Counted from the stretch's first letter, positions 4,931-64,000 are shown. The stretch is DNA of 64,000 nucleotides from Pristiophorus japonicus (GCF_044704955.1 NC_091994.1:47554001-47618000), one strand, 5' to 3'. Numbers and translations are program-made. Notes: a model not told the origin generated them from the letters alone.

Positions 4931-5257
4931 GTGGACAGTCTCAGACTCTGACTCAGCCGCCAGCCCTGACCGTGAAACCAGGGGACACGGCCACACTCGA
5001 CTGTAACATTGGAACGGATGATGGCTATTATGTCAACTGGTACAAGCAGACACCAGGAGCAGTTCCTCAATGGATCCTCTATTACCATCACTCTCTCAGT
5101 GCCCCAACCTATGGTTCGGGGTTTACCAGCGACCGTTTCACATCGAAAGCCAACAGCGGCCACAACATTTACCAGTTAATCATAAAGTCCGTGGAGGTGA
5201 ATGACGCTGCCGTCTATTACTGTGAAAAATGGTTTTCAGCAAGCAGTGCTTATGTGT
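4931..5257 (+). CDS. IgL cluster 1 V exon, sigma-type light chain (sigma or sigma-2)
   Basis: QTLTQPP...LDCNIG...WYKQTPG...YYHHSLSAPTYGSGFTSDRF...DAAVYYC; the long CDR2 and YGSGF motif are typical of sigma-type V. Confidence 0.95.
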
Positions 5258-5285
5258 CACAGTGACAGAAGGTAACACAAAAACT
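5258..5285 (+). other. 12-RSS of V1
   Basis: CACAGTG, 12-nt spacer, ACAAAAACT. Confidence 0.97.
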
Positions 5286-5600
5286 GGGAGCAGCAAATGT
5301 TATACACTTAACAACATTTTGCATCTGAAAACATTCTAATGTTTTACATTTCATAAAATCACTTTAATGTTGTCTTTTTTTTATACAATATTTTCCAATT
5401 TATCCCATTTCAGACTTGGTAACATTGAGTCTCACTGCCCAGTATTGGGTGTTGCTGACCTTTAATGTCAGTGTGTGGATGTTGCTGAGAGTTCATTCCT
5501 TCCTGTCCCACACCAGCTGGTACACTCGCAATACATGGAGTCTGATTAATGCTGGCACTGGAGCTTCTGAATGTGTTTTCTGTCTGATTCCAGGGTCCTG

Positions 5601-5639
5601 GGTAATTGTATGGACTGAACCCTAGAACATCTCACTGTG
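5601..5639 (+). other. 23-RSS of J1
   Basis: GGTAATTGT, 23-nt spacer, CACTGTG. Confidence 0.95.
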
Positions 5640-5676
5640 GGGGTGTTCGGCAAAGGGACCAAGCTCTTTGTAGCAG
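5640..5676 (+). CDS. IgL cluster 1 J segment (GVFGKGTKLFVA)
   Basis: FGxGT motif, GTAAGT donor at 5677. Confidence 0.96.
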
Positions 5677-5686
5677 GTAAGTGGCT

Positions 5687-5696
5687 GGGAAATCCC
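5687..5696 (+). promoter_or_regulatory. Candidate NF-kB site GGGAAATCCC in the J-C intron
   Basis: Exact GGGRNWYYCC match, conserved at 51858-51867; function untested. Confidence 0.4.
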
Positions 5697-6109
5697 TCCT
5701 GCAGGGACTCTCTGGGTTTGAACATTTAGACGTTCATAATTTAAACTATTATTTCTACTATTTGTTAGACATTAATTTGAGTGAAAATGCTGATTGCAGT
5801 ACAATCCTGTTTAGTACTAGCTCTGTTAATTAGTGCTGTGTAATTTTTGAATTCTAATTGAATTGTTTCCTGAAATTATCTGCAGATTGCTTTTTAAACA
5901 GTTGATGCAGATAGTGTCTGGGTCACAGTGTCTGATGCAGTTTACTCCAAACCTGGATGGAGAGCAGTGCTGGAAAAAGGGTTAAATGATTTCCCTCAAC
6001 CCCACCCCCACCCCCATTCCTCCCATGGTTGAGCTGTTTTAGTTAACAATGGTGGGAATGTTTTCACCATTAACTAGATTGGGATGGATTATACTGAAGG
6101 CATATGTGG

Positions 6110-6235
6110 TTTGGTTAGTAGTACTCTTGCCCCTGAGTCAGATGTTTGTTCCACTCCAGACTAGGCTGACACTCCAGTGCCATATTGAGGGAATGCTGCA
6201 CTGTCAGAGGTGCTGTCTTTTGGCTGAGATGTCTG
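6110..6235 (+). mobile_element. tRNA-derived SINE (SacSINE1/DeuSINE-like) 5' part; split by a CR1 insertion and resumes at 9521-9783
   Basis: ctgcactgtcagaggtgctgtcttt core and ctatataaatgcaag tail; family assigned from memory. Confidence 0.6.
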
Positions 6236-9200: not shown

Positions 9201-9520
9201 GTGCAGACCGTCCGGTTTGTACTGCTCCCACCTCCCCCAGAGCCAGTTCCAATGTCCCAGGAATTTTAATCACTCCTCAAGCCACGTATTCATCTGAGCT
9301 ATCCTGCAATTCCTACTCTGACTATCACGTGGCACTGGTAGCAATCTTGAGCATACCACTTTTGAGGTCCTACTTTTAATTTATCTCCTAGCTCCCAAAA
9401 TTTGTCTCGTAGGACCTCATCCCATTTTGGTACCTATATGCACCATGACAACTGGCTGTTTACCCTCCCTTTTCAGAATGTCCTGCACCCGCTCCGAGAC
9501 ATCCTTGACCCTTGCACCAA
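6236..9520 (-). mobile_element. Decayed, 5'-truncated CR1 LINE (ORF1 esterase remnant, APE, RT) in the J-C intron
   Basis: [18 protein letters not shown] and YRPPNS fragments; flanking TSD ATGTCTG (6229-6235 and 9521-9527). Confidence 0.93.
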
Positions 9521-9839
9521 ATGTCTGCCTTCGAGGTAGATGTAAAATATCTTGTGGCACTATGTTGAAAAGCAGTGATTATCCACAGGTGTTCGGTCAA
9601 TATTTATCCATCGATCAACATCACTGGTTATTATCAAATTGCTGTTTGTGGGACTTGCTGGGTGTAATTTAGCTGCTGTGTTTTCTACATTACAAAAGTG
9701 ACTATTTTTAAAGTACATAATTGTCTGTAAAGCCCTTTGGGACACCATGAAAGGTGCTATATAAATGCAAGTGTCTCTTTCTATTACATTAAAACATTGA
9801 AAAAGAAATTGCATTGATGTAGCACCTTTTAAAAAGAAT

Positions 9840-11050
9840 CTAGGGAAGAGATAGCAGAGGTATTGCTACACATATTTAATAATTAGTTAGAAAACAGTGT
9901 AGTGCCAGAGGACTGATGAAAGCTTAATGTTCTATCCCCCTTAAATATAGGTATTGCATGTCCAATTAGCTTAACATCGGTGGTAGGAAAAATAATGGAA
10001 TCTCTCTACTAAAGGAGAAAATAAGATCTGGAGACTAAAAATATAATGAATGGTCAGCATGGATTTCAAAAGGGAAATTCTTGCTTGACCAACCTTATTG
10101 AAATTTTTGAAGATATAACAGAGGGAGTGAACAATGGTAATGAAGTAGATGTAATTTATCTAGATTTTCAAAAGGCCTTGGATAAGGTAGCCCATAATAG
10201 ACTGATGAGCAAGGTCAGAGAATGTGGAGTGAGGGGACAAGTAGCGGAATGGATCATTATCTGGCTTCAGGACAGAAAGCAGAGAGTAGGAGTAAAGGGT
10301 AGCTATTCACAGTGGCAGAATGTGGGTAGTGGTGTCCCACAAGGATCAGTGCTAGGGCCACTGCTGTTCACAATTTACATCAACTGATTTAGACTTTGAA
10401 ATTAAAAACACAATTTCTAAATTTGTGGATGGTGCCAAATTGTGAGGGGTGAATGAATAGTCAATACCAAGGAGTACTGCAACAAATTACAGGAGGACAT
10501 TAATAATCTTGCAGAATGGGCATTTCACTGGCAAAATGAAGTTCAACACAGATAAATGTGAGGTGTTACATTTTGGTAGGAAGAATAGGGAGGTCACGTA
10601 TTACTTGGAGGGTGCGAGTCTCGTTGGGGTAGAGGAACAAAGGGATCTGAGTACAAATTCACAAATCGGTAAAAGTTGTGACACAGGTTAGCAAGGCAAT
10701 AAAAAAAGCAAACCAAGCACTGGGGTTTATTTCTAGAGATATAGAATTGAAAAGTAGGGAAGTTATGCTCAACCTGTGTTGAACCTTGGTTAGACCGCAT
10801 TTGCACTGTGTCCAGATCTGGTTGCCATATTATAAAAAGCATGTAGAGGCACTGGAGAGGGTGCAGAGAAAATTTACAAGGATGATGCCTGAAATGTGAG
10901 GGTATACATATCAGGAAAGGATGAACAGGCTGGGTCTCCTCTCTTGAACAAAGGTGGCTTGGGAGTGACCTATTACAGGTCTTTTTAAATTATGAAAGGT
11001 TTTCATAGAGTCGATAGAGAGAATGTTTCCACTTGCAGGGAAGAGCTTAA
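9840..11050 (+). mobile_element. CR1 LINE RT fragment
   Basis: QHGFQKGNSCLTNL, YLDFQKALDKV and [13 protein letters not shown] with stops and frameshifts. Confidence 0.9.
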
Positions 11051-12963
11051 CTAGTGTCTTTTTCAGAAAGATAGCACCACTAATAATGCATTACTGTACT
11101 TGTGAGTACTGCACTGAAATGTTGGCTGAGACATAGTCCATATATTTCTCCTTCCCAATTAGACTGCTCACGATCGGTCGGTCTGGATCTGTTTATTACC
11201 ATAGATGATGCCGAGTGTTCATTATTCTGTCATTCTTACCCATCCCCAATATTCTGATTTGAATTATGATGCGTTGCGCTTTAATTCACATTTGTCTGCA
11301 CCGATTTCATCCTGATCATCAATTTCCCAACAGTTACTCCCTCCCTGCGCCAGTTGAGGTACTCAACACTGCATTTTGAGTCAGTTCAGAGATGCTGAAC
11401 CCAATCCAATTCTCTACCCCCATACTCTCAGACACTATACCCCATCCAACACCCTACACTCTCTCAATTTCTCACAGTTCATGCTGGAATTCCCCTTCTG
11501 ACTCTCATCCAAAAAAGCACTGCTCCCAGCCTCTACTCCCTTCCCTCTTCCCTTCATAGCCATCCATTTCCCTCGGCACTGCTCCTTTTGAGTCCTGTTG
11601 CTAAATGATTCTGGTTGCTGCACATTAAGGCTGGAGCTGGGTACAAGTTCTGGGTACAATTTCCGCCCCCCCACTGCCGGTGGGGTGTGGGGACCATAAT
11701 CTATCTGTAGCTGGACTCCAGTCAGACCGACATTGCTGTGAAAAGGCTGGATGGTTTGTGCTGATGTTTGGCATTGACCGCTAACACCCGGACTGGGCCC
11801 ACACCACTGGCTCACTGAATTCTGTCGTTTGCCGTGTCGACACTGAGCCTGTGCCGGTGGGTTAGTGTTGCTGCATCGTGAACATCTCCGGCTGCCCCAC
11901 ATCAGCACTTGTACATTTTCCTTTTTTGTTTAAACAAAACACTTTGCAACTTCCTATTTCTGACCATGTACACTTGGATATTGAGGATCGTACCTCCCAT
12001 TCCCTCAGGCTCCTGTCCATGGGAGTTGTGAGCCAGCCCCATCTTGCCCTAAATGACCATTCTTCATAGATTGGCCGGGACAGTGAGTGTTAGTGGATCA
12101 TTCACCTGTCAATGGCCTTGTCTTGTCCTCGCCTCACACCCACAACAGCGCACCTTCCCAGTTGGGGAGTGGCAGGTGGGAAAAGGGGACGTTGCCGTTT
12201 TGTTCCCCTCTCCCAACCTCTGGATAATGTGCCAATTGGAGCAACATCGCTGCCCATGGACCGACTGGTCTGTGGAGCTCGGGACCACACAGTACCCTTA
12301 CCCACTGGCACAGGGGAGGGTTTGAGATCTTTTTATCCTTCCTGTGGCAGTGGGTGGCACCGCAGGGGCATTAGTGATGGGTGGGAAGGGGTGAATTGTA
12401 GAGGTGGAATGTGCAGCCGGTAGGACAGGGTGTGGGCACATTACACGGGTATGGTACCACTTTACACTGGCAGTGTGTCTCCAAGTCCTTTAATGGCTCA
12501 GTGCCAAAACACATCACTCTTTTTGGGGCAGATTTTTAACTTGAAATCCAAGGTTGCAGAGGTCACTGGTTTATGGTCAGAGTGGGATCCAGGATCACTC
12601 CTCTCCCTAACCAGGGATACTGGGGCCAAGTGAAGGGTCCCTGGTGCACTCGCCCTAGATCAGCTAACTTGGCACAGACCGGGAATGGATCCTGGGAGCA
12701 GGAGGTGAGGTCCCAGAGCGAGTGATGCTCTAATCCACCCAGTCACCAGGAGGATCCGAAAACAATAATTGTACATCAAGAAATCGTAGTCCTTTGTTTT
12801 GATAAACCATGTTCAACCTTAAAGGGGCAATGCACTCACTGTGAACGTCTGGGGCCCACTTTCGGAAGATTCAACCATTAAAATCTGCTTCGCTTAAACT
12901 CTGACATATGTTAAACATTTCAATAACTTTATTCAAACACTTCTTCTCTGGTTCCTATTGCAG

Positions 12964-13286
12964 CTCAGCAACTCCCTGAACCTTCACTAAAAGTGCTCGG
13001 GCCTTCGGCCGAGGAGATGAGCGCTAAAGGAGCAGGCACGTTAGTTTGCCTGGTCAGCAAACTGTCCATGGGCTTCGCTGCGGTCAGCTGGACAGTCGAT
13101 GGGAGTCCGACGAGCAGTGAGGTCCAAACCAGCGCGGTGTCGCGGAACACGGACAACACCTTCAGTCTCAGCAGCTACCTGATGGTCCCCGGCACAGACT
13201 GGAGCAGTGGGAAGGTGTACTCCTGTACAGTTCAACAAGGGACAGCTTCGAAAACATCCGCTACAGTCGCACAATCCGACTGTTAA
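12964..13286 (+). CDS. IgL cluster 1 C exon
   Basis: ttgcag acceptor in phase with J; AQQLPEPSLKVLGPSAEE...TLVCLV...SW...YSC...QSDC-stop with the C-terminal Cys. Confidence 0.96.
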
Positions 13287-13693
13287 ATAGATCGAAGCTT
13301 CACTCGCGTATGCTGCCTGATTATTGGGGCAGTGTCACTTGCCCCATTATCCACCATGTATCCCTCAGCAACCCCATCTTCTTTCCCCTACCCCATTCTC
13401 CACCCTCTCCCCTTGGTCTCTGCTGCATTTTGTGCTTCTGTTTTGCATTGTGTGGTTCTGCTGTAACATTTGAAGTGTTTGTACCCGAGGCAGCTTTGTT
13501 CAGCTTCTCCTATTAAGAGGCTGCACAAGGGTTACAGTGACCAGGTACTGGTCTAGAATCAGAAAGTTCATTTGAAATTGATAGTTTGTTCAACAACACC
13601 TGAAGGATTTAATGAAAATGATTAATGAAGATTGTTTGTGATCTGCCAACAGCATCAGGCTGACAATGATGGTCTATGACTGATCTAACTTCC

Positions 13694-14700: not shown

Positions 14701-16199
14701 ACCTGCAAAAAAAGTCTAAATTAATTCCACGGACTGATTAGTCAGAGGAAATTGCAGCAGATCTGACCACCATCTTTCAAAGATCCTTGGATATGGAAGT
14801 TGGGTCAGATCTGTGGAGGGATGCCACTGTAACACATTGTTTTTAAGGAATGAACTAGCTAACAGTAAACCAGTCAGATTAACAGCAGCAATGGTATTCT
14901 AGAGGCCACAATAGAGGATCAATTAATACTCACCTGGAGACATGGGCTCTAAGAAGAGCAAGCAAGGTTTCACATGTGGCATTTAATAGAACTCCCTTTT
15001 GAGAGGCTATTGATGAATGAAATGCAGCAGATGTTGTATATATGTATAATAACTTGAGTTTTGTTACTGTAAACGGCCTTGGGTGTAAACCTGATCCAAC
15101 TTTATTCACGCTCAAAGTACCCATGTGACATAGTACCCACTTTTATAGACCAGTGACCGTGCGCAAGCCTGTACAGCCCGATGACCTGTGACAGTGGTGC
15201 CCGCTGGTGTCTGGTGACCCCAAGCATCAATACATAATGTTCTCTTTCAAGACCTTAATATCAGTCTCTTTACAAATTAAGATGGTCTGGGATTTTCCTC
15301 TCATGAGTTGATCGTCTCAGTTCAACTTTAGTTCTAGGCGAGCATTCTGAGTCAGTTGTGACTGAAGGCTGAGTAACCGATCTGATGGGAGTGGTAATGA
15401 CCACATCAGAGGCTGAAGGTCCAGGTTCAGTAATGACAGCAAAGTCCTTTGATGAATGAACATTGGTTGGTTGGTTGGTCACTGCCTGCATATTCCTCAA
15501 ATGGTTCCAGTTCATCTGTGTGCCATGGTCTTACCTGATCAACATGTTTCCTGCATGTTTGCCCATTCTCAATCATAGCTGTAGATGTACTGGATGACAT
15601 AATACTATACTCTATCCATTTTGAATATGCATCCAACACAACAAAAAACATTTTGCCCATGAAAGGGCCCACAAAATCGATGTGGATCCTCGACCATGGT
15701 TTAGATGGCCACGACCAAAGACTCAGCGGGCTTCCGCTGGTACTTTTCGTAGCTGCATGCAAGTATTGCACTGATTCACACATTCCAGATCAGAGTCAAT
15801 TCCAGGCCACCATACATAAGACCGAGCAATGGCTTTCATCAGGACAATACCGGGATGAGTGCTATGTACTTCACGTACAAATTTTTCTCTACTTTTCTTA
15901 GGCATAATGACTTGATTACCCAACAGTAAACAATCTGACTGACTGGACAGCTCATCTTTGTGATGGTTGTAAGGTTTGGTTTCATCACACATCTCCATAG
16001 GTATTGCAGACCAATGACTACTGAGGACACAACGTTTCACAACCGATAAAATAGGGTCATGGCTGGTCCAGCTCCTAACTTGTTGAGCAGTGACAGGAGT
16101 TCCTTCACTCTCAAAAGCATCCATTAATAACAGTAGATCTGCAGGTTGAGGCGTCTCCATATCAGGTGTGGGCAAAGGCAGACGACTCAGTGCACCGAC

Positions 16200-17371
16200 T
16201 GCAGGGGAGGACGAAAACCCACTCATTTTACCCAGAAGGAAAAGGGCTGTGGGATCGGTCTGTGCTGTGAATTGAAACCAAGACGGTTTGACCTTGGCAG
16301 AGCAGTGATTGGACGGGGGAGGACACCGGACGGCCAATGGTGGGACAGAGTCAGCCCGAAGCATGCGGCTTTCAAGCCAATGGGAGAGCACTTGAAAACT
16401 GTGGGACTCACAGCCATTATCGGGCTATTGTCTTCCCCATGTTTACATTATGGAAGGAAATTATGCAGTCCTTCAGAAAACTAGGGAACCCAAAACAAAC
16501 CAAAGGCCTACACAATGGCTACAGGAGGCCAACCCAATTAACACCTACTCAAACCTTGAGTAGGTTAACATCAGTGGAAAAAAACCCGCAATAATCTAAA
16601 ACGGCTGCATTTTCAAAATCACAAAGCCCACCAATGGGAAGAATCGATTTCAGCAGGAGAGGCGGACTGGATAATCTGGCTATAAAAAGTGGTTTCTGAC
16701 GTAGTGTGGGTGGTTCCCTGCTCTCGTGATCCAACAACCAGCAAGCCTCTCGACACTGAAGGAAAACCAGTGTCCGAAGACACCGAAGATAGAAGAAACA
16801 AACCACCAGACTTGCAGAAGGCACAGTAGTGAATATAACCTCTGGTCCCTGGAACTCCCAACTCAGTTAGGCCAGGAAAGGTGGGAGGTTGGGCAGTGTA
16901 CTGCTAAACTTGTGTAAAGATTTTCATTGTGTCTGTTTAGTGGGATTTAGGGGGATTGTTTTGTTGGTGTATTGCTGTTTGTTGAGATACACCTTGTCAA
17001 ATAAATTGGAAGCCTAAGTTCCTCTTGGAATCACCTTGTCTCAGTTCTATTGTATTACATCTCCTGATCGTGAGTCTTATGTCAGAACAGTGTAAGGGAA
17101 GCTAGAAGCGCCTCGAAAATGCTCAACTGTGTGTCACAGGCTAGGGAAGAAGGGGTTAGGAGTGTTTGACACTCACAGGTGCCTCACAGGCTAGGCATAA
17201 GCTGTGGGGATGCACGAGTCTCAAAACCCCCTTCATAAGCTGTGGACACAGTATCTCCAGGGGTGCTCTTGCAGCACTCAGGGTACCTCACAGGCCAAGC
17301 ATAAGCTGTGAGGGCAGAAGCCCAGAGAGAGACACCCAAGGCACAACAACACTCCCTGAGAACCCCTTACA
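16200..17371 (+). repeat. ERV 5' LTR
   Basis: TG...CA ends (tgcagggg...ccccttaca), TATAAAA at 16681, AATAAA at 17000; near-identical to 25481-26741 and 62114-63413. Confidence 0.9.
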
Positions 17372-17450
17372 GAACATGGTGATCGCCGCAGGACATAAGC
17401 AAACAGGAGATGTTAATATAACAGATGAGGTAATAAGAGAGGAAACTAAA

Positions 17451-19256
17451 ATGGAGGAGAGAATTTCCTCATACATTTTTGGCAAGGTGAACCTCACCAA
17501 ACCTTGGGTGCAAGCCCTCACACGGGCAGAGCGCCCAGTGGATGCTGCTGCTCAGTGGACAGCAGGGAAGGACCACAACCACAAGGTGGAAAAGGCCATC
17601 TGGCTTATCTGCTTCACCCGCCAAGTCCGAAAGCTCGACCAGCGGGTGAAGGACTTGGAACAGAGTCTTCAGAAATCAGAGGAGCTCTCTGCTATCCGGG
17701 CTGCGGTTGGGGACAACCTGCTGGCCGAATTAGCTGTGGAGCAGCAAGGGAAGAGGCAGTTGGAGGAGACCTTCCGAAATAGCCGGGACTATCTTCAGTG
17801 TCAGGTCACTGAGGCCAAGGGTAGTGAGGGGTCCCTCCGGGAACAGAACTCTCGGTACACCCAGAAAATTTGGGAATGAGAGAATAAATTAAAAGGAGTA
17901 CAGGCAGCCTATAAAGTGGCCAGTAGCAGTGAGTTTGCAGATCACGGTCCCTGCCAGGAGAGGATTAAAACTCTCACCCATGCTCTATCCCAGGCAAAGG
18001 GGATGGATGCCCTGATAGGACCCGGAGGGTCCACAGGGGACAAAGGAGAGTATTGGGGGGTAGAGGAGAATCCAAAGGCAAGAGACGCCCGACCACCTCC
18101 TGAGGCACCGGTGGTTTGTCCGGTGGGGTACCAGGAGGAGCGGGGCTCGCAGATAGTAGCATACCCAGGGCTGGGGGCAGGACCAATGTGTCCCGCTCGG
18201 CAGCAAGGATGTGAGGCTCCCGCCGAGGGTCAGTTAAGGGCTGGATCAGGCGACCACGCACTGTCTGCTGCAACGGGTATGGTGGGACAGCCGGAGGTAG
18301 AGGGGCCAGCGCAGAAAGATCCTGAACCAGGGTGGATGTGCCCGGTCAGGCAGCGCAAGTACTGTCCTCCACAGGGAGGTGGCCAAGGTCAGGGAGCGCT
18401 GGAGAGCGACTTTATTATTCCCCATGGAGTTCAATCACTCAGGCCCATTTGGCCAAACTCACTCGCAGCGGGGACCCGTCTATCCACTTCATGGAGGTGA
18501 TGCAGGCAGGGGAAATTAATGGGTGCGACGAGGAAGAGGCAGCCAAGCTGCTGCTCTTCTCTCTGGACACCAAATTGTACCAGGCCCTACCAGCAGAATG
18601 CCGGAGGGGGCAGCGTACATTTACTGAGGTCCAGAGGGCCGTCCTTGAGGCTATGGGCTTCAATGACCCAGTCCTTTCGAACGGGTCGAAAGGACAAGGC
18701 AGCTCGCAGGGGAAACCCCGCAGGCGTTTGCGGACAGGCTGTGGGTGGTATACGACTCAGCCTGTGGGGAGCTCCTCGACCGGGCGAATCTTTCCGCGGT
18801 ACAGACTGGCCGCTGGCTGAGGATGCTCAAGGCCAGGGCAGAACTGTGGTTCGATTCCCGGGACCCAACCTCACCGAGGAAGCACTGGTCAGGCAACTGG
18901 CACTGGTCCAACAGAATGGAGGAGGGGAGGAGAAGAAAACCTCCAAAGGTCGGGTAAATGAAGTAAAACCCAACTCGATTCCCCAAAAGGGAATGGCACC
19001 AGGAGGGTGGCCGCTTGATTGATAAGGAGGGAGTGTGCTATGGGTGTGGGAAAGCTGGGCATTTTAAAAGGGATTGCAGGAGCCCAGTAAAGAGATATGG
19101 GGGGAGAAGTCCTTTAGGAGCCGCCCAGAGTGGGGGAAGTGGAGCGAGCTCCTCACGATCCTTGACGAGATAGTAGCTGCAGTGAGGACAGCGCTAGAGG
19201 GGACTGGGAAGGTAGCCACGGCAACAGGCAGGGAAGCACCAGCAACCCTGCCGTGA
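17451..19256 (+). pseudogene. gag: Gag-like polyprotein (N-terminal coiled coil, C-terminal CCHC knuckle CYGCGKAGHFKRDC at 19036-19077); stop at 17877 and frameshifts
   Basis: Joined ORF fragments 17166, 17916, 18332, 18745, 18519 and 19074. Confidence 0.85.
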
Positions 19257-22200
19257 CTAGCCCAGACCCAGCCTGTATACCTGTGCCCACTAGAATACGA
19301 CCCCTGGGGACGACACTGGGTCAAGATGGAGGTTGAGGGTATATTGGGTACTTACGTTTTGGACACTGGTGCTTCCAGCACGATAGTCCATTCGGAGGAC
19401 CCCGCAACCTCACCTCTATCAAACGGGGTGCCGTATCAACTAGTTGGGTTGACAGGAAATAAGAAGGCTGGGTTTTTCTCAGTCCCGCTCGCAGTTCGTT
19501 TAGGAGCATTCCAAACACAATGGAAGTGCGTCCTGATGAACTGGGAGCAGGTGGGAAAAGGGATCTTGGGGGCTGATTTCATCATTGCTCGCCAGATCCT
19601 AGTAGACTTGAGGAATCACTGTCTATGGGGCATAGTGGGCACGGGAGCAGAGGGAGAAGTCATGTTTATTGATAAGAAACAGGGAAAAGGGACTCTGTGT
19701 ACAATGAAGCCAAAAGGTGGCTACGACCTGGAGGTTCTGGTTGGTAACACGCCGGCCGAGTCTATGCCGTGCCGTGCCGTGCAGCATTTGCCACCCATAA
19801 ACACGATTGTGGGAGAGTCACAGGAGTGGAGGTTAGAATAGATGGGGATCCCATGTCCCGCCCGCAAAAGCAGTATGGCTTTCCCCGAGAGGCAGAAGCA
19901 GACTTGGAGACAGCTTTAAGCTCACTTGTCGAGCAGGGTGTTTTGAGACCCATAGCCACCCATGTCAACTCCCCGCTTTGGCCGGTTAGGAAACCGGACA
20001 ATTCTTGGAGGGCTACGGTGGATTATAGGTTGCTCAATAAAAACATCCCAGCTTGTGCTCCCACAGTAGCGGCGGTTGCGGATCTGATAGGGGAAATCCC
20101 TGCATCCGCAACCACGCTCACAGTGTTGGACATATCCAACGGGTTCTGGTCTATCCCTGTATGGAGGGAAGACCAGTACAAGTTTGCCTTCACCTTCCGG
20201 GAACAGCAGTATACATGGAGCTGCCTCCCACAGGGCTTTCATAATAGTCCCAGCATCTTTCACCAATGCATGGTGAACTGCTTAAAAGGCTTCAGCCAAC
20301 CACACCAGCTGGTCCAGTATGTGGACGACCTGTTGTTGTTCACAGACAGCAGTGAGGAACACGGTCCACTGCTGGCCGAACTGCTGGTCTTACTGAAGGA
20401 AGGGGGTTTTAAAGTTAACCCCAAGAAAGCCCAGATAGGTCTAGGAGAGGTAAAATTACTGGGCCTGACGATAAGGGAAGGAGAAAGGGCCATTGATGAG
20501 GCTAGAAGAAAGGCAGTGCAGGAACTCCCTGTTCCGAGGGATGTGTTGGGAGTAAGGTCTTTCCTGGGAATCACTAGCTACTGTAGGGACTTCATCGAGG
20601 ACTATGCAGCCACTGCCGCCCCTCTGCTCAGACTCCTACATAAGGGGGTCGAGTGGGAATGGGACGAGGGCTGTGAGGCAGCATTTGTCCGTCTTAAGAG
20701 AGACCTGCAGGTAGCACCAGCCCTCGGGGCAATTGATGGGGGGGAGGAATTCTTCCTGGAGGTGGCAGCCAGTGGCGACAGCTTAAGTGCAGTGTTGCTC
20801 CAGGAGCGAAACGGTCAGCTGAGACCAGTGGTGTACTCCTCCAGGGTCCTCACGGAGGTAGAAAAGGGATATTCCAATTGTGAGAGGCACTTGCTTGCCA
20901 CCCACTGGGCAGTAGAGAGAGCTCAGATCTTTACCGGAATATCCCCCATTACACTCCTCACCCATCATACCCCGACGCAGATGCTGTTGGACGGGAGGAT
21001 TAAGGACGGGACAGTGAGCAGTGCTAGAATCACTCGCTGGACCCTCCTCCTCTCTCAAATGACTTTAAAGGTCAAGGGCCTCTGCGAGCCCAGGCTCGCA
21101 GCAAATTTAATCTATCCAGGGCAGCCGCATTGATGCTCTGTGGAGGGGGTATGGGACATCAACTTTAGATTTCGTGCAGGGATACACCCCACAGGCCGCG
21201 AGATCTACGTTGATGGCTCCAGTTCAGTGTCCGCGGGTACAAGACTCATGGGCTGCGGAGTTTGGGATCCCAAGGCAGGGATTGCCTTGGCTCTTAAACT
21301 CCCATGCACCCTGAGCGCCCAGCAGGCGGAACTCTCGGCGGTGATGTATGTGGTCACACACCCCGAGGAATTCCCTACCCCATACACGATTTGCTCGGAC
21401 AGCATGTTCACTTGCAATTCGTGTACAGCATATCTGGCGATTTGGTCATGCCGGGGGTACACCTGTGCGGATGGGAAGCCCCTTGTGACCAAACCCCTGC
21501 TAGAAAAGATTGTGGCTGCAGTGGGAGAAACCGGGGATGTATATATCCATAAGGTAAAGGCCCACTCCAAAACTGAGCCACGGGGGGAAGGTAACCAGCA
21601 GGCAGACCTGCTGGCAAGTGAAGGTGCTCGTTCAGGTCGCCCATGGGACCCATACAAGGCAGGCAGGATAGCAGCAGCAAGAAGCAAGCCAGGGACACAA
21701 GGGAGCGTAGGGGCGGCTGCGGCCTCGGACCTTAAAGTAGTCCAGATGCAGGATCCGGTCCTGAAGGCTGCCTTGGCTGCTATCAAAAAGAGGGAAAAGG
21801 CGGAGGGCCCATACAGTGCTGCAGATATTGCTGTGCGGGAAGGCATGTTGTTTAAAGGGGACAAATGGGTAGTGCCGCCACAACATCGGAGGGAATTCCT
21901 TCAGCTGGCCCATGAGGGTCCAGGTGCTGGAAATCTGGGCCGGAATCTACCTGGCAACAGATAGAAAAGGCAGGGTGGTGGCCAGGCCTCCGGGAAGATG
22001 TCCGCAACTTCTGTGCGGGCTGTCTGGTTTGCGCTGCAAACAACCCAGACCCTCAGAAAAGGAAGGTGTCTATGGGACACGTCAGGCGGGTAGAGGGACC
22101 GTGGCAGTCGATCCAGATCGACTACATCGGACCCCTACCGGCCGCCCAGGGAGGTTATAAATACTGCCTCGTCCTGGTGGGTTTTCCAAGTGGGTGGAAG

Positions 22201-23015
22201 CCTTCCCTTGCTGAACAGCTACCGCGGTGGGGACTGCAAAAATCCTGGTGAGGGAGGTGTTCTCTCGGTGGGGTCTACCTCAAATCGTGGAGTCCGACCG
22301 GGGAAGCCAATTCACCGGCCAGGTGATGCAGGTCACCCTAAAGGTACTGGGGATAGGAACCAAATGGTATGTTGCCTACAATCCTCAGTCCTCAGGCCCC
22401 GTAGAACGCCTGAACCGGACCCTAAAGGAAAGGCTGCGCAAGGAGACGGGAGACTCAACGAACAAGTGGGTGGAGGTCTTACCGTTGGTCCTCATGGGAA
22501 TCCGGGCCAGTCAGTCAAAGAGCACAGGGTACTCACCCCATGAGCTGAGGACGGGCCGGATCATGAGAACCCCAGTGCATGTATTGGCGCCGGTTCTCAC
22601 CGAAGGGCAGCTTCGAGAGGTGAACCGGGACCGCTTCGTCAGGAATCTGTTTGAACAGCTTCAACAGATTCACTGGCAGGCGGCCAACAACATGGGTAAA
22701 CAGCACCGTGCCAATCGGCTGCTGCTGGAACCCCGCAGTCACCATGATTGGGAGGTGGGCGACCAGGTGATGGTGAGAAGCTTCGCCCGGGTCGGGGTAT
22801 TTGAACCACTGTATATGGGACCATACAGCATAGTCGACAAGGCTAGCCCTATGGTCTATGCGGTTCAATTGCCTCGCCGGGTGAAGTGGTATCACATTCA
22901 TCAGTGTAAATTGTTTGTCCCCAAAAGAGATAAAAAACAGAGGGGACGAGCAAGGGAAGGGAATCAGGCACTGGGGGAAGAACAGGCCCCGGTGGATTTG
23001 GAGGCTCCGCAGTAG
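19257..23015 (+). pseudogene. pol: Pro-Pol: protease (LDTGA), RT (YVDDLL), tether, RNase H (YVDGS/SAQQAEL/SDS/KVKAH/GNQQAD), integrase (IDYIGPLP, SDRGSQF, PQSSGPVER)
   Basis: ORFs 19326, 19769, 21140, 22066 and 22227, linked by frameshifts and a stop at 21131. Confidence 0.95.
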
Positions 23016-23704
23016 GCAGCGGGCCCCGAAGCTCTACAGCCGGGGCTGGTTCATTGCTCCAGTAAGGCTATCCCACCATTGGGTAGAGGTTCCCAGCCCA
23101 CTAACAGAAGTAGGGAGAAAGGCTCTACCATTAGCAAGGTCCAAGGGGAAGCTGAACCTCCCATGGTGGATCAGCTGGGGCTAGCCCAAGAGGTGGAGGA
23201 GATAGCATTGCAGCCCATAATGTGGGACTCTGCACTGACAGTAAGGAGGAGTAACAGAGTGCCACAGCCCAGGGCGCCGTGGTCCCCTGTTTACTTAGCT
23301 CCCCGCCCCAGACCGAGAAGGCGAAAGACAACAGGGAGGGTGCTCTGTTGCGCTAGCAAGGGTCTCCCACCGATTATCCGGGGCTCGGGAGGGCCTTGGA
23401 GGGCAGCACCAGATCCATTAAGGGGGACTAAACGAGCCCCTCAGCGGAGGGCATCCTCGTCCCCAGGGTACGGTCAGCCGAGTGGTCAACGACCCCTGTA
23501 CAGTGACAGGATGTAGCCTGGCCACCCGGGGACCGGTGGCGGTGTATATATTTTCCCTTTCTGTTTTGTTACTTTGTGTTGTGTGCAGATGTGTTTAGGT
23601 AAGGCAGTGACGGTTGGGTACAGCATTTTATGTTCGGAACATGTTACGCGGGCCGAGCCTGGAGAGGTCTCTCAAGGCAAGGCCATGTTCTTCTGGCCTT
23701 TCGG

Positions 23705-25101
23705 ATGTCAACACCTCCCGACTGGACGTTAGTGATGCTGTTATCGCTAAGGATCTGCACCGGGCACCGAGGGGACACCGAGGACTCCCTGGTTTTCGGA
23801 TGCTCTGGGGGCAAAGCGCCGACAGTGACCACAGGAGAAGGGACTCCGGGGGCAGATGGCCGGGTCACCTACTCCCACGAGGGGAGATGGCCTGGGTGGT
23901 TGGAATCGAATTCCACCAAGTACTCCAACCATAAGGACTTTACCTACGGAGAGGCCTCCATCCCCTTCCCGGAGGTCACTGTGGCCACTTCCAGAGTGAG
24001 AGTGACAGAAGGCAGGAAGGTATGCCTAACTTGCCAAGGGGACATACCTCTGGGACGGTGGTGGTGGCTCAGGAAGCTCAAGAGGGACGTGGGAGACCGA
24101 TACTCGGACTGGGAACGTCTGGATAATGATACCTACCGAACCATCATGGGGTCATCTGGCGGGGTCACGGTGTGCTGGGAGAAATGGTGGGCGTATGACC
24201 AAGGAATTTATTTGTGTATGTGGGGATCCACTCGCGTGTGTTCAGAGGGGGTCTCCATTGCTTTCTATAGGTGTTGGTCAGGATACCCGTGATGGGGGCG
24301 TCCCCACGACCAGCACCTCTGTACCGAGTGGAGAATGTGGGAGTCATTCGTGGAGGGGTGCATGTTCGATTCCAAGAGGTCCCACCTTATGTCACAATGT
24401 GGGAGCACACTGTGACAGGTACAGACCTCTCGGGATGTCGGAGCAGGGGAGCACAGGTAATCCTGTGCCCCCAACACTTGAACGCTTTTGCAAGGCCACA
24501 ATGCAGAGCCTATCAATTGCACAGTGGAGGTAATGGCCCCTAACAACATGCCTCCACAGGAGCATATGTAGGCGGTGGGACATATTGTGTCACCACAAGT
24601 GCCCAACGGTATGAACACGGACCGGGAAGGTGGTGTCCAATACCGTACAGCAGCTTTTGCTTTAAACCCAGGGCAGAGGTTCAAGTGGCACACACTAGAA
24701 TCACACCCATCCCTGAACCTTCCACGATTCACCTCACGGTACAAAACAACCTCAGCTACCTACAGCAATATGTCGCCCATTTTGGCTATCCCATTGCCCC
24801 ACAACCTGAGAAACTTACAGCCCTCCTCCAGGCAGTGGATTTGTCTCAAAAACATTTTTACACCATGAAGCAGAAAACTGAAATTCTAGCAGGGGAGATT
24901 GTCCAGATTAAACCCCCAGCATGGTGGGATTTGGGGATACGGGCAGACATAGCTGCGTGGATCCGGGTGGGATCGCATGCCTTAGTATTCGGCCAACTCC
25001 TGATTGTAGCATATCTGCTAGTTACAAGCTGTAAGCTCAGGAGAAAAAGAAAAAGAAAGCAGTTCCTCAGGCTACTAAACAGACAGGAGAGCCATTGCTA
25101 A
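23705..25101 (+). pseudogene. env: Env-like glycoprotein: signal peptide, Ig-like domain, Cys-rich ectodomain, TM and basic tail; frameshifted
   Basis: WTLVMLLSLRIC; VTEGRKVCLTC...W...DQGIYLC; DLSGC...ILCP; HALVFGQLLIVAYLLV followed by RRKRKRK; lies between IN and the 3' LTR. Confidence 0.8.
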
Positions 25102-25480
25102 ACACTCAAGGCGTGTAAACAAAGCTTGACCGCGACACTTAGACGGTTTTTGTTATTCCCAGGGATGACTGCGTTTTCATACATGGCCCCTGGAGAGTTT
25201 GCAGGGCAGGTTTCTTTGTTTTACGGTTAAGACTGAAATGAGACTCAATGTACAATTACTGCTGTAACCTTAAGTACATATATGTATATTGCTGTCGATA
25301 ATTGTAACCTGTTGGAATCTGTGTTTTGCACCACGTTAAAAGGAATTACGATATATATCGACGGGATCAGTTTAGAGTTAAACTGGGGAAAGTTAGGCAA
25401 TTTGGGAGACCTAGGGTTTTCTCAACACCCTGAACTTTGACACACTTGAGTGGTGTCTGACTGTGTCAGATGGGGGATTA

Positions 25481-26741
25481 TGTCGGGGAGGAAGGAAAAG
25501 GGCTGTGGGATCGGTCTGTGCTGTGAATTGAAACCAAGACGGTTTGACCTTGGCAGAGCAGTGATTGGACGGGGGAGGACACCGGAGGGCCAATGGTGGG
25601 ACAGAGTCAGCCCAAAGCACGGGGCTTTCAAGCCAATGGGAGAGCACTTGCTCGAAAACTGTGGGACTCATAGCCATTATCGGGCTATTGTCTTCCCCAT
25701 GTTTACACTATGGAAGGAAATTATGCAGACCTTCAGAAAACTAGGGAACCCAAAACAAACCAAGGGCCTACACAATGGTTACAGGAGGCCAACCCAATCA
25801 ACCCCTACTCAAACCTTGAGTAGGTTAGAAAAACTGAATTGGAGGAAAATTATGCAGACGTTCAGAAACCAGGGAACCCAAAACAACCCAAGGGCCTACA
25901 AAATGGCTACAGGAGGCCAACGCAATCAGCACACACTCAAAACTTGAGTAGGTTAACATCAGTGGAAAAAACCCGCAATAATCTAAAACTGCTGCATTTT
26001 TCAAAATCACAAAGCCCACCAATGGGAAGAATCGATTTCAGCAGGAGAGGCGGACTAGATAATCTGGCTATAAAAAGTGGTTTCTGATGTAGTGTGGGTG
26101 GTTCCCTGCTCTCGTGATCCAACAACCAGCAAGCCTCTCGACACTGAAGGAAAACCAGTGTCCGAAGACACCGAAGATAGAAGAAACAAACCACCAGACT
26201 TGCAGAAGGCACAGTAGTGAGTATAACCTCTGGTCCCCGGAACTCCCAACTCAGTTAGGTCAGGAAAGGTGGGAGGTTGGGCATTGTACTGCTGAACTTG
26301 TGTAAAGATTTTCGTTGTGTCCGTTTAGTGGGATTTAGGGGGATTGTTTTGTTGGTGTATTGCTGTTTGTTGAGATATACCTTGTCAAATAAATTGGAAG
26401 CCTAAGTTCCTCTTGGAATCACCTTGTCTCAGTTCTATTGTATTACATCTCCTGATCGTGAGTCTTATGTCAGAACAGTGTAAGGGAAGCTAGGAGCGCC
26501 TCGAAAACGCTCAACTGTGTGTCACAGGCTAGGGAAGAAGGAGTTAGGAGTGTTTGACACTCACAGGTGCCTCACAGGCTAGGCCCATAAGCTGTGGGGA
26601 CGCACGCGTCTCAAAACCCCCTTCATAAGCTGTGGACACAGTCTCTCCAGGGGTGCTCTTGCAGCACTCAGGGTACCTCACAGGCCAGGCATAAGCTGTG
26701 AGGGCAAAAGCCCAGAGAGAGACACCCAAGGCACAACAACA
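25481..26741 (+). repeat. ERV 3' LTR (last ~20 nt deleted)
   Basis: Begins TGTCGGGGAG after the purine tract; identity to the 5' LTR stops at gcacaacaaca. Confidence 0.9.
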
Positions 26742-29700
26742 GATGATGTCAACGCCCATCTCTGGATACGGGATGATGCATTGGTATTAATACCTTTGTT
26801 TTCCGAAAACAAAGAAATGAGTGGCTTGTGATCCGTTTCGATCTCAAAATGAAGACCAAACAGGTACTGATGCATCTTTTTGACCCCATACCCACAGGCC
26901 AAAGCTTCTTTTTCTACCATGCTGTAAGCTCTTTCCGCCTTTGACAAACTTCTCGAAGCATACGCAACAGGTTGTCGCTTACCCGACTCATTTGCTTGTT
27001 GGAGTACACATCCAACCCCATATGATGAAGCAGCACAGGCCAATACAAGATGCTTACACGGATCATAATGAACAAGCAACTTGTTTGAACAGAGCAGATT
27101 CTTAGCTTTCTCAAAGGCTCTATCTTGAGATACATCCCAGACCCAGATGTTGCCTTTTCTGAGTAGCATATGTAGTGGCTCTAATAAAGTGCTCAATTTG
27201 GGTAAGAAATCACCGAAGTAGTTGAGTAGCCCAAGGAATGAACGCAGCTCTGTCACATTCTGAGGCCTGGGTGCATTTTTGATGGCCTTAGTTTTCAAAT
27301 CAGCAGGCCTGATGTCATCAGCAGCAATCTTCCTCCCCAGGAATTCAACTTCAGATACCATGAAGACATACTTCGAACATTTCAGCCTGAGTCCCACTTT
27401 GTCCAGACAATGTAGGACTTCTTCAAGATTGTTCAGATGTTCAGCAATGTCACGACCTGTGACCAGAATGTCATTTTGAAACACGACAGTTCTAGGAACA
27501 GACTTCAGTAGACTCTGCATATTCCTCTGAAATATGGCTGCAGCTGAACGAATTCCAATAGAACACCTGTTGTAGACAAACAGTCCTTTATGGGTGTTGA
27601 TGCAGGTGAGTTTCTTCGAAGTGCCGACAAGCTCCTGTGTCATATAGGCCGATGTCAGATCTAGTTTAGTGAACGACCTGCCACCAGCTAGCATGGCGAA
27701 CAGGTCATCAGCCTTCCGGTAACGGATACTGATCCTGTTTCGAAAATCAGTTATTCGTAACCTTGTAGTCACCACAAATCCTGACAGTGACATCAATCTT
27801 CAACACAGTAACAATGGGACTGGCACACTCGTTAAACTCGACCGGTGATATGATCCCTTCTCGTTGGAGTCTGCCAAGCTCAATTTTAACCTTCTCCCTC
27901 ATCATGCAAGGAACAGACCAAGCTTTATGATAGACAGGCTTTGCATCAGAATCTAGGTGAACCTGCACCTTGGCTCCAAGAAAATTACCAATGCCCGGTT
28001 CAAACAAAGAAGGAAACTTCTTCAACACTTGAGCACATGAAGTGTCATCCATCGAGGACAATCATTCCAGTTCCACTTGATTTTCTCAAGCCAATTCCTA
28101 CTGAACTGCGTTCGGATAAACACCTGGGATGATCCATAATGGTAGATCATGAACCACACCATCATATGACACCTTGACTACTATACTGCCAATCACCGGT
28201 ATGAGTTTCTTAGTCTAAGTACGCAACTTGGCATTGACTGGACTCAGCTTAGGCTTCACAGCCTCAGTGTCCCACAGCTTGTTGAATGCCCTTTGGCTCA
28301 TTACCGACTGACTCACACCTGTCAGCTTCACATTAACGATTATTGGCTGGCTCTTTCCCAAGAACGAATACAGACCATACACTTCCTCACCGGCTTGTGT
28401 ATCCGGGCCAGCACTGGACTGATCATCATCAAAAATGTGATGAGTGGCAACACGGTTGTTCAGTTGTGGGCACATTCTCTGAAGATGCCCCACTTTTGAA
28501 CAGCCATTACAGGCGGTATTGTTTAAACCGACACTGATGAGGCCGATGATTGCCCCCACAATGCCAACAGGGTGAAATCAGATTCGTACCAGTTGGCGGA
28601 CTCTGAGCAGCTATAGGTTTCACATAAGCAGTCGAGTAGGCCTTGCCATGAGCAGGTCCGCCAGAAGACGACACAATCTTGTTTACAGTAGCTGTCGTGG
28701 AGCTCCGATTCTTCGTTGATATCTGCCTCAAGCTATCATCAGATATCATGCATGCCTGGGCAGTCGCGATGGCCTTTCTCAAATCCAGCTTCTCTTTGGC
28801 CAAAAGCTTCCGAAGAATCACATTATGGTTGATGCCTATCACGAAGAAATCTCGCAACATGTCTTCCAACACGTTCCCGAACTTACGCGGCTCAGCAAGA
28901 CGTCATAGGTCGGCGATGAATCCCGACACAGCCTGATCCTCAGCACAAACATGTGTATAGAAGCAATAGTGTGAGATGATGATCCCCTCTTTTGGCTTAC
29001 AAAATCCTCGAAGCATACGCAACAGGTTGTTGCTTACCCGACTCATTTCCTTGTTGGAGTACACATCCAACCCCATATGATGAAGCAGCACAGGCCAATA
29101 CAAGATGCTTCCATGGATCATAATGAACAAGCAACTTGTTTGAACAGAGCAGATTCTTAGCTTTCTCAAAGACTCATACTCTTTGTCCATTGGACGTAAA
29201 GGCGAGAGAAGATTCTTCATAAGGTTGTAAATTTTCGGATGACAAATGGTGAGGAAAACCGCCATGCGCCTAATTGCATCAGCCTCTCCCTCCATTTTGT
29301 TGGCCACAAAACACTGATCCAGGCGGTCGATAAAATCCGCTCAATCCTCGCTCTCCGCAAATCTCTCCAGAATTGCAGTAGTGCCCATTGTACATGCGAA
29401 GGTTCTTAAGTTACCTCGTCGCCAAATGTAATGTCTCAAGAGCCTTGTTACTGTAAACGGCCTCAGGCGTATTCCTGATCCAACTTTATTTGCGCTCAAA
29501 GTACTTGCGCGACATAGTACCCGCTCTTATATGTCAGTGACCGCGCACACGCGCGTACAGCCCGATGACCTCCGACAGTGGCGCCCCCTGGTGTCTGGTG
29601 ACCCCAAGCATCAATACATAACAATATGGAGTTTCAAAAAGGGGTTTGATAACTTGCAACATTAGAGGTTTGTTGATAAAACTAGAGGGAGTGTGGAATT

Positions 29701-50995: not shown

Positions 50996-51100
50996 GTAAG
51001 TACAGACACTGAACTCTGCTCCTCCCGCAGCAGCACATTGGGCGCTTGGGGTCACTTTTAAAGAGTCAATGTGTAATGTTTAATCCCTGCTCTTTTACAG

Positions 51101-51427: not shown

Positions 51428-51455
51428 CACAGTGACAGAAGGTAACACAAAAACT
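51428..51455 (+). other. 12-RSS of V2
   Basis: CACAGTG-12-ACAAAAACT. Confidence 0.97.
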
Positions 51456-60984: not shown

Positions 60985-62113
60985 TATAATAACTCGAGTC
61001 TTGTTACTGTAAACGGCCTTGGGTGTAAACCTGATCCAACTTTATTCACGCTCAAAGTACCCGTGTGACATAGTACCCACTTTTATATACCAGTGACCGT
61101 GCGCAAGCCCGTACAGCCCGATGACCTGCGACAGTGGTGACCCCAAGCATCAATACATAACGTTCCCTTTCAAGACCTTAATATCAGTCTCATTACAAAT
61201 TAAGATGTTCTGGGATTTTCCTCTCACAAGTTGATCGTCTCAGTTCAACTTTAGTTCTAGGCGAGCGTTCTGAGTCAGTTGTGACTGAAGGCTGAGTAAC
61301 CGATCTGATGGGAGTGGTAATGACCACATCAGAGGCTGAAGGTCCAGGTTCAGTAATGACAGCAAAGTCCTTTGATGAATGAACATTGGTTGGTTGGTTG
61401 GCCACTGCCTGCATATTCCGCAAATGGTTCCAGTTCATCCGTGTGCCATGGTCTTACCTGATCAACATGTTTCCTGCATGTTTGCCCATTCTCAATCATA
61501 GCTGTAGATGTACTGGATGACATAATACTATACTCTATCCACTTTGAATATGCATCCAACACAACAAAAAACATTTTGCCCATGAAAGGGCCCACAAAAT
61601 CGATGTGGATCCTCGACCATGGTTTAGATGGCCACGACCAAAGACTCAGCGGGATTCCGCTGGTACTTTTTGTAGCTGCATGCAAGTATTGCACTGATTC
61701 ACACATTCCAGATCAGAGTCAATTCCAGGCCACCATACATGAGACCTAGCAATGGCTTTCATCAGGACAATACCGGGATGAGTGCTATGTACTTCACGTA
61801 CAAATTTTCCTCTATCTTTCTTAGGCATAATGACTTGATTACCCAACAGTAAACAATCTGACTGACTGGACAGCTCATCTGTGTGATGGTTGGTCTCATC
61901 ACACATCTCCATAGGTATTGCAGACCAATGACCACTGAGGACACAACATTTCACAATCGATAAAATAGGGTCATGGCTGGTCCAGCTCCTAACTTGTTGA
62001 GCAGTGACAGGAGTTCCTTCACTCTCAAAAGCATCCATTAATAACAGTAGATCTGCAGGTTGAAGCGTCTCCATATCAGGTGTGGGCAAAGGCAGACGAC
62101 TCAGTGCACCGGC
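60985..62113 (-). mobile_element. Gypsy A 3' LTR and integrase remnant, copy 2
   Basis: Paralog of 15045-16199. Confidence 0.9.
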
Positions 62114-64000
62114 TGTAGGGGAGGATGAAAACCGGTCATTTTACCAAGAAGGAAAAGGGTTGTGGGATCGGTCTGTGCTGTGAATTGAAACCAAGACGGT
62201 TTGACCTTGGCAGAGCAGTGATTGGACAGGGAAGGACACCGGAGGGCCAATGGTGGGACAGAGTCAGCCCGAAGCATGCGGCTTTCAATCCAATGGGAGA
62301 GCAGTTGCTTGAAAACTGTGGGACTCATAGCCATTATCGGGCTATTGTCTTCCCCATGTTTACATTATGGAAGTAAATTATGCAGTCCTTCAGAAAACTA
62401 GGGAACCCAAAACAAACCAAAGGCCTACACAATGGCTACAGGAGGCCAACCCAATTAACACCTACTCAAACCTTGAGTAGGTTAGAAAAACTGAATTGGA
62501 GGAAAATTATGCAGACCTTCAGAAACCAGGGAACCCAAAACAACCCAAGGGCCTACACAATGGCTACAGGAGGCCAGCACAATCAATACCCACTCAAACC
62601 TTGAGTAGGTTAACATCAGTGGAAAAAACCCGCAATAATCTAAAAGGGCTGCTTTTTCAAAATCACAAAGCCCACCAATGGGAAGAATCGATTTCAGCAG
62701 GAGAGGCGGACTGGATAATCTGGCTATAAAAAGTGGTTTCTGACGTATTGTGGGTAGTTCCCTGCTCTCATGATCCAACAACCAGCAAGCCTCTCGACAC
62801 TCAAGGAAAACCAGTGTCCGAAGACACCGAAGATAGAAGAAACAAACCACCAGACTGCAGAAGGCACAGTAGTGAGTATAACCTCTGGTCCCCGGAACTC
62901 CCAACTCAGTTAGGCCAGGAAAGGTGGGAGGTTGGGCATTGTACTGCTAAACTTGTGTAAAGATTTTTGTTGTGTCCGTTTAGTGGGATTTGGGGGATTG
63001 TTTTGTTGGTGTATTGCTGTTTGTTGAGATACACCTTGTCAAATAAATTGGAAGCCTAAGTTCCTCTTGGAATCACCTTGTCTCAGTTATATTGTATTAC
63101 ATCTCCTGATCGTGAGTCTTATGTCAGAACAGTGTAAGGGAAGCTAGGAGTGCCTCGAAAATGCTCAACTGTGTGTCACAGGCTCGGGAAGAAGGGGTTA
63201 GGAGTGTTTGACACTCACAGGTGCCTCACAGGCTAGGCATAAGCTGTGGGGATGCACGAGTCTCAAAACCCCCTTCATAAGCTGTGGACACAGTCTCTCC
63301 AGGGGTGCTCTTGCAGCACTCAGGGTCTCTCACAGGCCAGGCATAAGCTGTGAGGGCAGAAGCCCAGAGAGAGACACCCAAGGCACAACAACACTCGCTG
63401 AGAACCCCTTACAGAACATGGTGAACGCCGCAGGACATAAGCAAACAGGAGATGTTAATATAACAGATGAGGTGATAAGAGAGGAAACTAAAATGGAGGA
63501 GAGAATTTCCTCATACATTTTTGGCAAGGTGAACCTCACCAAACCTTGGGTGCAAGCCCTCACACGGGCAGAGCGCCCAGTGGATGCTTCTGCCCAGTGG
63601 ACAGCAGGGAAGGACCACAACTGCAGGGTGGAAAAGGCCATCTGGCTTATCTGCTTCACCCGCCAAGTCCGAAAGCTCGACCAGCGGGTGAAGGACTTGG
63701 AACAGAGTCTTCAGAAATCAGAGGAGCTCTCTGCTATCCGGGCTGCGGTTGGGGACAACCTGCTGGCCGAATTAGCTGTGGAGCAGCAAGGGAAGAGGCA
63801 GTTGGAGGAGACCTTCCGAAATAGCCGGGACTATCTTCAGTGTCAGGTCACTGAGGCCAAGGGTAGTGAGGGGTCCATCTGGGAACAGAACTCTCGGTAC
63901 ACCCAGAAAATTTGGGAACCAGAGAATAAATTAAAAGACGTACAGGCAGCCTATAAAGTGGCCAGTAGCAGTGAGTTTGCAGATGACGGTCCCTGCCAGG
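62114..64000 (+). mobile_element. ERV copy 2: 5' LTR (62114-63413), PBS-like site at 63419, gag open from 63493 to the window end
   Basis: Same insertion point in Gypsy A as 16200; LTR begins TGTAGGGG and ends CCCCTTACA. Confidence 0.92.

Follow-up and report, generated by a model that had tools for sequence, protein, structure and literature searches.

A defective provirus in a sawshark immunoglobulin locus, from a large retroviral family likely of the snakehead retrovirus lineage with a predicted F-like envelope protein

A retroviral provirus lying behind immunoglobulin (Ig) light-chain genes of the sawshark Pristiophorus japonicus raises the question of which retroviral lineage it represents and what kind of envelope protein (Env) its family carries. 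The window, that is, the whole stretch of 64,000 nucleotides analyzed (GCF_044704955.1 NC_091994.1:47554001-47618000), had been described preliminarily as holding, at 16200..26741, a candidate lokiretrovirus-like endogenous retrovirus (ERV). Very probably, the element is instead a dead, env-deleted copy from a large ERV family likely belonging to the snakehead retrovirus (SnRV) lineage; where env is undeleted, the predicted product is an F-like class Ib fusogen with an N-terminal Ig module that likely serves attachment. The lineage itself is already known, as SnRV-related shark ERVs have been published; new here is the N-terminal, probably Ig-fold Env module, which is swapped for unrelated modules or absent in relatives.

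The span is a real provirus with long terminal repeats (LTRs), gag, a pol encoding protease, reverse transcriptase (RT), tether, RNase H, and integrase, and env, arranged as follows:
16200..17371, plus strand: 5' LTR of 1172 bp, with a TG start, an ACA end, TATAAAA at 16681, and AATAAA at 17000
17377..17394, plus strand: primer binding site, behind a 5-nt spacer after the 5' LTR; a decayed version of the subfamily's site
17376..19256, plus strand: gag, with a coiled-coil N-terminus and one CCHC knuckle (about 19035-19077, read from sequence); carries stops and frameshifts; its final TGA, which CTAG follows, lies in the pol frame
19257..23516, plus strand: pol, with protease, RT (YVDD), tether, RNase H, integrase, and a tail of ~200 residues; carries frameshifts and stops
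23705..24292, plus strand: 5' part of env, encoding a signal peptide and a probable Ig-fold module; truncated by the deletion, it reaches a stop after 195 codons
24265..24291, plus strand: site at which 916 bp of env were lost, marked by an imperfect direct repeat; 41 loci share this junction
24271..25101, plus strand: 3' remnant of env, with cysteine-rich F domains I/II, the second heptad repeat (HR2), transmembrane helix, and basic tail; its frame differs from that of the 5' part
25469..25480, plus strand: polypurine tract, directly before the 3' LTR
25481..26741, plus strand: 3' LTR without its final 20 bp; one 128-bp U3 repeat unit in it has no counterpart in the 5' LTR

The bounds and the ~1.2-kb LTRs reported earlier are correct, with TG at 16200 and the 3' LTR cut at 26741; no target-site duplication is left, having been lost with the 3' LTR end plus some host DNA. 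The LTR pair differs at 30 of 1116 aligned sites (p-distance 0.027; Kimura two-parameter distance 0.027), which gives an age of ~6 million years at a mammalian rate or ~60 million at the shark rate assumed in PMC4422223. In the window copy, gag, pol, and env are all broken. The domain order recognized from the start, RT followed by a degenerate RNase H tether, a second RNase H, and integrase, is recovered in full by Pfam: the protease is weak, the RT matches at E 1e-31, the integrase is present, the tether matches a Gypsy-type RNase H (E 2e-19) with its catalytic acids absent, and the second RNase H (PF00075, E 3e-20) retains the D-E-D-H-D motifs. The coiled-coil Gag N-terminus and single CCHC knuckle hold as well, the knuckle with a Pfam zf-CCHC match above cut-off in a sister copy; coiled-coil families match weakly, by HOOK-type hits alone, and no separate frame is seen for the smc-like extra gene that some lokiretroviruses have. 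The env-like gene is likewise there, but the loss of 916 bp within it had been missed. In addition, the ~200-residue tail past the integrase (about 22900-23516) is Pro/Arg-rich and missing from frog and coelacanth relatives, and the LTR-spacer-primer junction (17372-17394 in the window, and in sister copies) makes an ATG in the gag frame, such that the primer site may be translated.

The family is large, occupying more than 700 places, and in part very young. A search of the shark's own genome with the RT finds at least 97 places at 96-100% identity, and env patterns match 705 undeleted and 41 deleted-junction places, with 0 matches for reversed controls. Nine sister copies, picked for long Pol frames, are 11.7 kb long (one is shorter and one tandem) and have 1.3-kb LTRs with TG...CA ends, diverging by 0-0.5% within pairs. 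Target duplications measure 4 bp in seven of the eight scorable sisters and 5 bp in the other, and in 9/9 gag and pol form a single frame across TGA-CTAG. The same genome has an intron-bearing tRNA-Arg(UCG) gene whose 3' end matches the primer site of the window's subfamily; three primer-site variants occur in the family, one matching this tRNA and two that we take to be Arg isoacceptors. TGT/ACA ends and an in-frame TGA are also known from a class III frog ERV (PMC8278194). On contig C3 of this genome, dozens of near-identical U3 matches spaced by 40-60 kb (20.4-27.1 Mb and 86.4-86.6 Mb) mark another tandem array that carries the family.

Judging from its RT motifs, the element most likely belongs with SnRV (class III, clade Huo) rather than with the lokiretroviruses. 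Counted by hand against rows of the Wang and Han supplement, the RT agrees with SnRV at 69/132 positions (about 52% identity) and with one Loki entry at 56/132. It carries PTVA, LDISNGFWSI, QYxFAFTF, and LPQGFHxSPxIFHQ as the SnRV row does, the RNase H motif CTxYLAxWxRRG..ADG is common to both, and both are LTR proviruses with env; the HERV-L, walleye dermal sarcoma virus (WDSV), and Xen-1 rows show, by eye, fewer of these motifs. The Arg-tRNA primer site and Gag coiled coil, which SnRV reportedly shares, fit this placement, as does the in-frame gag-TGA-pol. In an RT tree of 43 rows, the element falls outside Gypsy (100/100), in agreement with its earlier recognition as retrovirus-grade, and outside the gamma/epsilon-type rows (100/99), grouping as sister (91/90) to 12 Pols that share its motifs, some from frogs and coelacanth and others unnamed; PQG is present in all rows of this group with a readable motif. 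A quick tree of RT plus tether still leaves it outside Gypsy and gamma/epsilon, although the root moves; one tree run dropped 8/139 rows for short RT, including the Gypsy element that hosts the provirus. NYNRIN-like models from frogs and coelacanth, at 46-48% identity, come nearest among Pols, and the element's Pol scores 233 bits with murine leukemia virus (MLV), 231 with Ty3, and 210 with foamy virus. Scanning viral contigs with the Pol alignment reveals no relative, and searching the shark's genome with the foamy protease family gives no match, the controls being likewise silent.

Such a placement accords with what is published on cartilaginous fish. SnRV-related ERVs are represented by CmiERV lineage I of the elephant shark (PMC4422223), clade Huo is found across all vertebrate groups (PMC6001957), and shark ERV RTs fall mostly into clade III (PMC11089739). 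Unlike the chimaera elements, which are old fragments, the family described here has hundreds of copies, some with identical LTRs. SnRV-related ERVs have been left outside the ERV3/ERV4 classes, and some have a zinc finger (PMC4299795). ERV3/ERV4 in the strict sense is ruled out by the 4-bp duplication (7/8) and the Gag CCHC knuckle, as against 5 bp and no zinc finger; Ty3/Gypsy (Metaviridae) by the RT position outside Gypsy together with the dual RNase H; and foamy virus by the Gag CCHC knuckle, the pol in frame with gag, and an Env module that, like that of coronavirus spike, sits at the N-terminus rather than being placed ahead of the furin site.

Several points weigh against the SnRV assignment. 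The trees hold no SnRV, Loki, Odin, or foamy rows, so that the placement rests on motifs and hand counts. The 4-bp duplications in 7/8 sisters differ from the 5 bp made by ERV3/ERV4 (PMC4299795), and they would suit a separate shark retrovirus lineage outside classes I and II that is loosely SnRV-related. That possibility, which also draws on the long branch (0.45), the 46-48% identity to the nearest named Pols, the differing positions in the RT and the quick RT-plus-tether trees, and named close Env relatives from skate and sawshark only, is unlikely given the 52% hand-counted RT identity and common motifs with SnRV, the published SnRV-related lineage in a chimaera, and the breadth of clade Huo. 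A deep-branching lokiretrovirus, which would be the first in cartilaginous fish, is very unlikely. The tether and second RNase H, which would fit Loki, are present but not diagnostic, being common to all retroviruses and Odin elements. The published Loki Env, with signal peptide, RXKR, fusion peptide, coiled coil, transmembrane segment, and F-like core (PMC7947760), resembles the Env described below, whose GP-x-G-x-VL start motif and LP..YR..NVG pattern recur in published Loki Env passages; the nearest named Pols, from host groups with Loki, bear the label NYNRIN-like, which is an automatic one, NYNRIN and CGIN1 being the closest kin of the Loki integrase. By contrast, the 15 listed Loki YVDD passages in PMC7947760 show PLSRWP-type and CPFG(Y)xNSPA motifs, where the element has PTVA and LPQGFHNSP as SnRV does and neither PLSRWP nor CPFG, and KHDCG, QYKFAF, and CAPTVA are not found in 300 of the 318 pages of its supplement. 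No protein retrieved has PLSRWP or CPFGY, and the Env does not match PF00523; in the Loki Env passages that show the N-terminus, three in all, the extra 210-residue module found here is missing, and Wang and Han report Loki from none of the 3 chondrichthyan genomes that they screened (PMC7947760). Because the RT, by motifs and hand counts, follows SnRV rather than the published Loki sequences, the loki-like assignment is probably wrong.

With the SnRV lineage as the most likely home of the family, its Env deserves attention. The undeleted Env of the sisters (777-799 aa) comprises, in order, a signal peptide, a module of ~210 residues, the F core, RQ(K/R)R, a hydrophobic peptide, heptads, a cysteine-rich region, and one transmembrane segment; neither CX6CC nor an immunosuppressive domain (ISD) motif was found in it, as had been observed for the window copy. 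It is predicted to be a class Ib fusogen resembling paramyxo- and pneumovirus F, and a likeness to Mononegavirales F rather than to gamma-type Env, suspected at the outset, is borne out at the level of fold. A model built from 39 sequences (predicted local distance difference test score, pLDDT, 61) matches the F of respiratory syncytial virus (E 5e-11) and human parainfluenza virus 3 (2e-10) in Foldseek, as well as that of Langya virus and Newcastle disease virus (NDV); a wide fold search also retrieves NDV F (Z 11.6, root-mean-square deviation (rmsd) 12.4, 389 aligned). Foamy Env is matched at Z 8.1-8.2 (VIA) and walleye-virus Env in a viral library at E 1e-10 and 5e-8, and the top BFVD match is a nameless protein of 928 aa. 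Pfam and PDB sequence searches with Env give no fusion-protein match, and one Env relative matched Baculo_F at E 0.001. Because the F-like fold is common to foamy, walleye-virus, and Loki Env, it is not diagnostic of a lokiretrovirus. Among 30 undeleted copies, the ratio of nonsynonymous to synonymous change (dN/dS) in the F part is 0.38 for shared and 0.74 for private variants (p 0.0095), and 0.22 versus 0.60 in RT-tether, by crude counts without transition or CpG correction on a biased sample of copies. The pattern fits spread with a working Env, which appears to have been under purifying selection meanwhile.

The N-terminal module probably adopts an Ig fold. It shows a C-W-DxGxYxC pattern, kept in skate and sawshark relatives; Pfam Ig_3 matches at E 0.002, below cut-off; all 50 best VIA rows for its model are Ig domains (Z 6.6-7.4, rmsd 2-2.8); and Atlas leads include Ig clusters (0.85-0.86). 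The front module of one relative, P0054, is V-set-like (Atlas 0.93, 185 shared features). Against the Ig fold stand the poor model (pLDDT 48), for which Foldseek gives no match under E 0.001, Atlas scores reaching just the above level, and a Z of about 7 that falls in the range of common arrangements; moreover, dN/dS in this part is 0.61 for shared and 0.86 for private variants (p 0.43), showing no significant purifying selection in the family. The module may serve for attachment, choosing the target cell. Its capture from the neighboring Ig light-chain locus finds no support: a profile comparison with the light-chain V returned nothing, with an alignment that contained chimeric rows.

Fusing an attachment module to an F scaffold has parallels. 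Foamy Env is a class Ib protein with an attachment module of its own, and F has been described as a scaffold accepting receptor modules (PMC11468914). Gamma-type Env has an IgV-like receptor-binding domain, RBD-C, at its front (10.1101/2024.03.17.585361), and in crocodilian ERV4 a captured nectin3 puts an Ig fold in place of Env, modules being exchanged among retroviruses (PMC4299795); in contrast, the Ig module here is joined to an F-like core, not to gamma-type surface and transmembrane subunits, and env is not replaced. If true, the N-terminal Ig-fold module would be a third way of placing a receptor-binding part on the F scaffold. For SnRV-like shark ERVs, or the SnRV clade, the literature searched yielded no description of an Env that is F-like or bears an Ig module, most subscription papers, Repbase, and bioRxiv supplements lying outside its coverage.

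The 44 Env relatives, among them shark, skate, and frog proteins, align in their F cores at 20-39%, while their front modules form groups with little or no mutual similarity and one relative has no module. The V-set-like front module shares 43% identity with the final part of a frog Pol gene model in the same RT group; the pol-env linkage of outside relatives relies on a single gene model (P0004). The same genome holds a second young env-bearing family (L026-L032; at least 66 matches) with LTRs of 663-678 bp that are 99-100% alike, two CCHC knuckles, and gag-TGA-pol. Its primer site is presumably Ser-type. Its Pol scores 405 bits with MLV versus 205 with foamy virus and, in a quick tree, adjoins gamma/epsilon rows. 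Yet the Env cores of this family and the window family are 30% identical (E 5e-78), the N-terminal module of the second family being unrelated and cysteine-rich. A third family is marked by a lone open 761-aa env frame (L039:1347-3632, minus strand), best matched by a Chiloscyllium protein (45%); stops riddle the other matches to this env type, and its own pol survives in fragments, making it a candidate co-opted env gene. Moreover, shark gene models P0026, P0027, P0035, and P0066 join env pieces to Niban, zinc-finger, cadherin-like, and fbxo15 proteins, as annotation chimeras or by exonisation.

In the window copy, the missing 916 bp of env lay between two imperfect direct repeats, and the furin site, fusion peptide, and first heptad repeat (HR1) are gone with them. 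The 3' flanks of 24/24 deleted copies are mutually unrelated, and three deleted copies with both ends show 4-bp duplications, exact or nearly so, their LTR pairs lying 0.028-0.041 apart; therefore, the deleted form integrated many times. The 41-locus form is an env-defective sublineage, which spread by itself or with help. Of 33 retrieved deleted copies, 30 have the window's U3 type, also present in 9/20 further undeleted copies, and two are unscorable; a single one bears the other U3 type, so that the deletion may have recurred or recombined. Could the truncated gene have been kept as a secreted receptor blocker of signal peptide plus Ig module, hence the spread of the deleted form? Refrex-1 and suppressyn are precedents for receptor blocking, and the deletion leaves a clean 195-codon frame with a signal peptide, which is uninterrupted in both the window copy and its duplicate. 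When tested, however, this idea is not supported, the frame being unbroken in 13/30 deleted copies versus 13/27 for an equal RT stretch (p 0.79), and the cut seemingly falls before the last strand of the V-type sandwich; it is therefore most improbable.

The SnRV-like, env-bearing family suggests the following life cycle. The LTR transcript would yield Gag and, via UGA readthrough, Gag-Pol; Arg-tRNA would prime reverse transcription, and integration would make a 4-bp duplication. Furin would cut Env, whose N-terminal Ig module may bind a cell-surface protein and trigger the F core to fuse, allowing the family to re-enter the germ line by infection. One subfamily would have lost 916 bp of env via a template jump at a short repeat, and may then have spread to about 40 loci without a fusogen of its own, either within cells or in particles of helper copies.

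The origin of retroviral Env is open, with four scenarios on offer (PMC7947760). The occurrence of F-like Env in shark proviruses that are SnRV-like and in others that are apparently epsilon-like, beside Loki and foamy, favors an ancestral F-like Env, and such an Env by itself cannot identify a lokiretrovirus. Tentatively, and somewhat short of an even chance, class Ib F-like Env may be the ancestral retroviral envelope, one alignable family over SnRV-like, epsilon-like, and frog proviruses that is echoed in Loki and foamy, with the gamma type a later replacement; these retroviruses of fish and amphibians would set their tropism by exchanging N-terminal modules, among them several Ig domains taken from hosts, and such a family would still, or until very recently, be entering the shark germ line. 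Numbering in the hundreds and including both young and old copies, some that have env and some that lack it, the family offers a direct shark test of env loss versus spread.

The provirus is nested in an old minus-strand Gypsy element and repeated further on, both of which the preliminary description had missed:
15723..16199, minus strand: integrase side of the host Gypsy element (Integrase_H2C2, E 2e-10)
26742..27799, minus strand: RT-RNase H side of the host Gypsy element (RT_RNaseH, E 1e-31)
62113..64000, plus strand: start of a second provirus copy, from a 46-kb duplication of the Ig light-chain unit, sharing the env deletion and the flanks of the first

The copy at 62113 thus arose by segmental duplication. 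The Ig setting proposed at first is borne out by a light-chain V-J-C cluster with a V bearing a 12-bp recombination signal sequence (RSS; 5258), a J with a 23-bp RSS (5639), and a C exon near 13000-13300, ~2.9 kb behind which the provirus lies; the cluster repeats 46 kb further on. Both this layout and the named Env relatives suggest a cartilaginous fish. The two unrearranged clusters (4950-13300 and 51100-59200) belong to 46-kb units that are ~97% alike near the provirus, and the duplication and the insertion have much the same age (p 0.026 vs 0.027).

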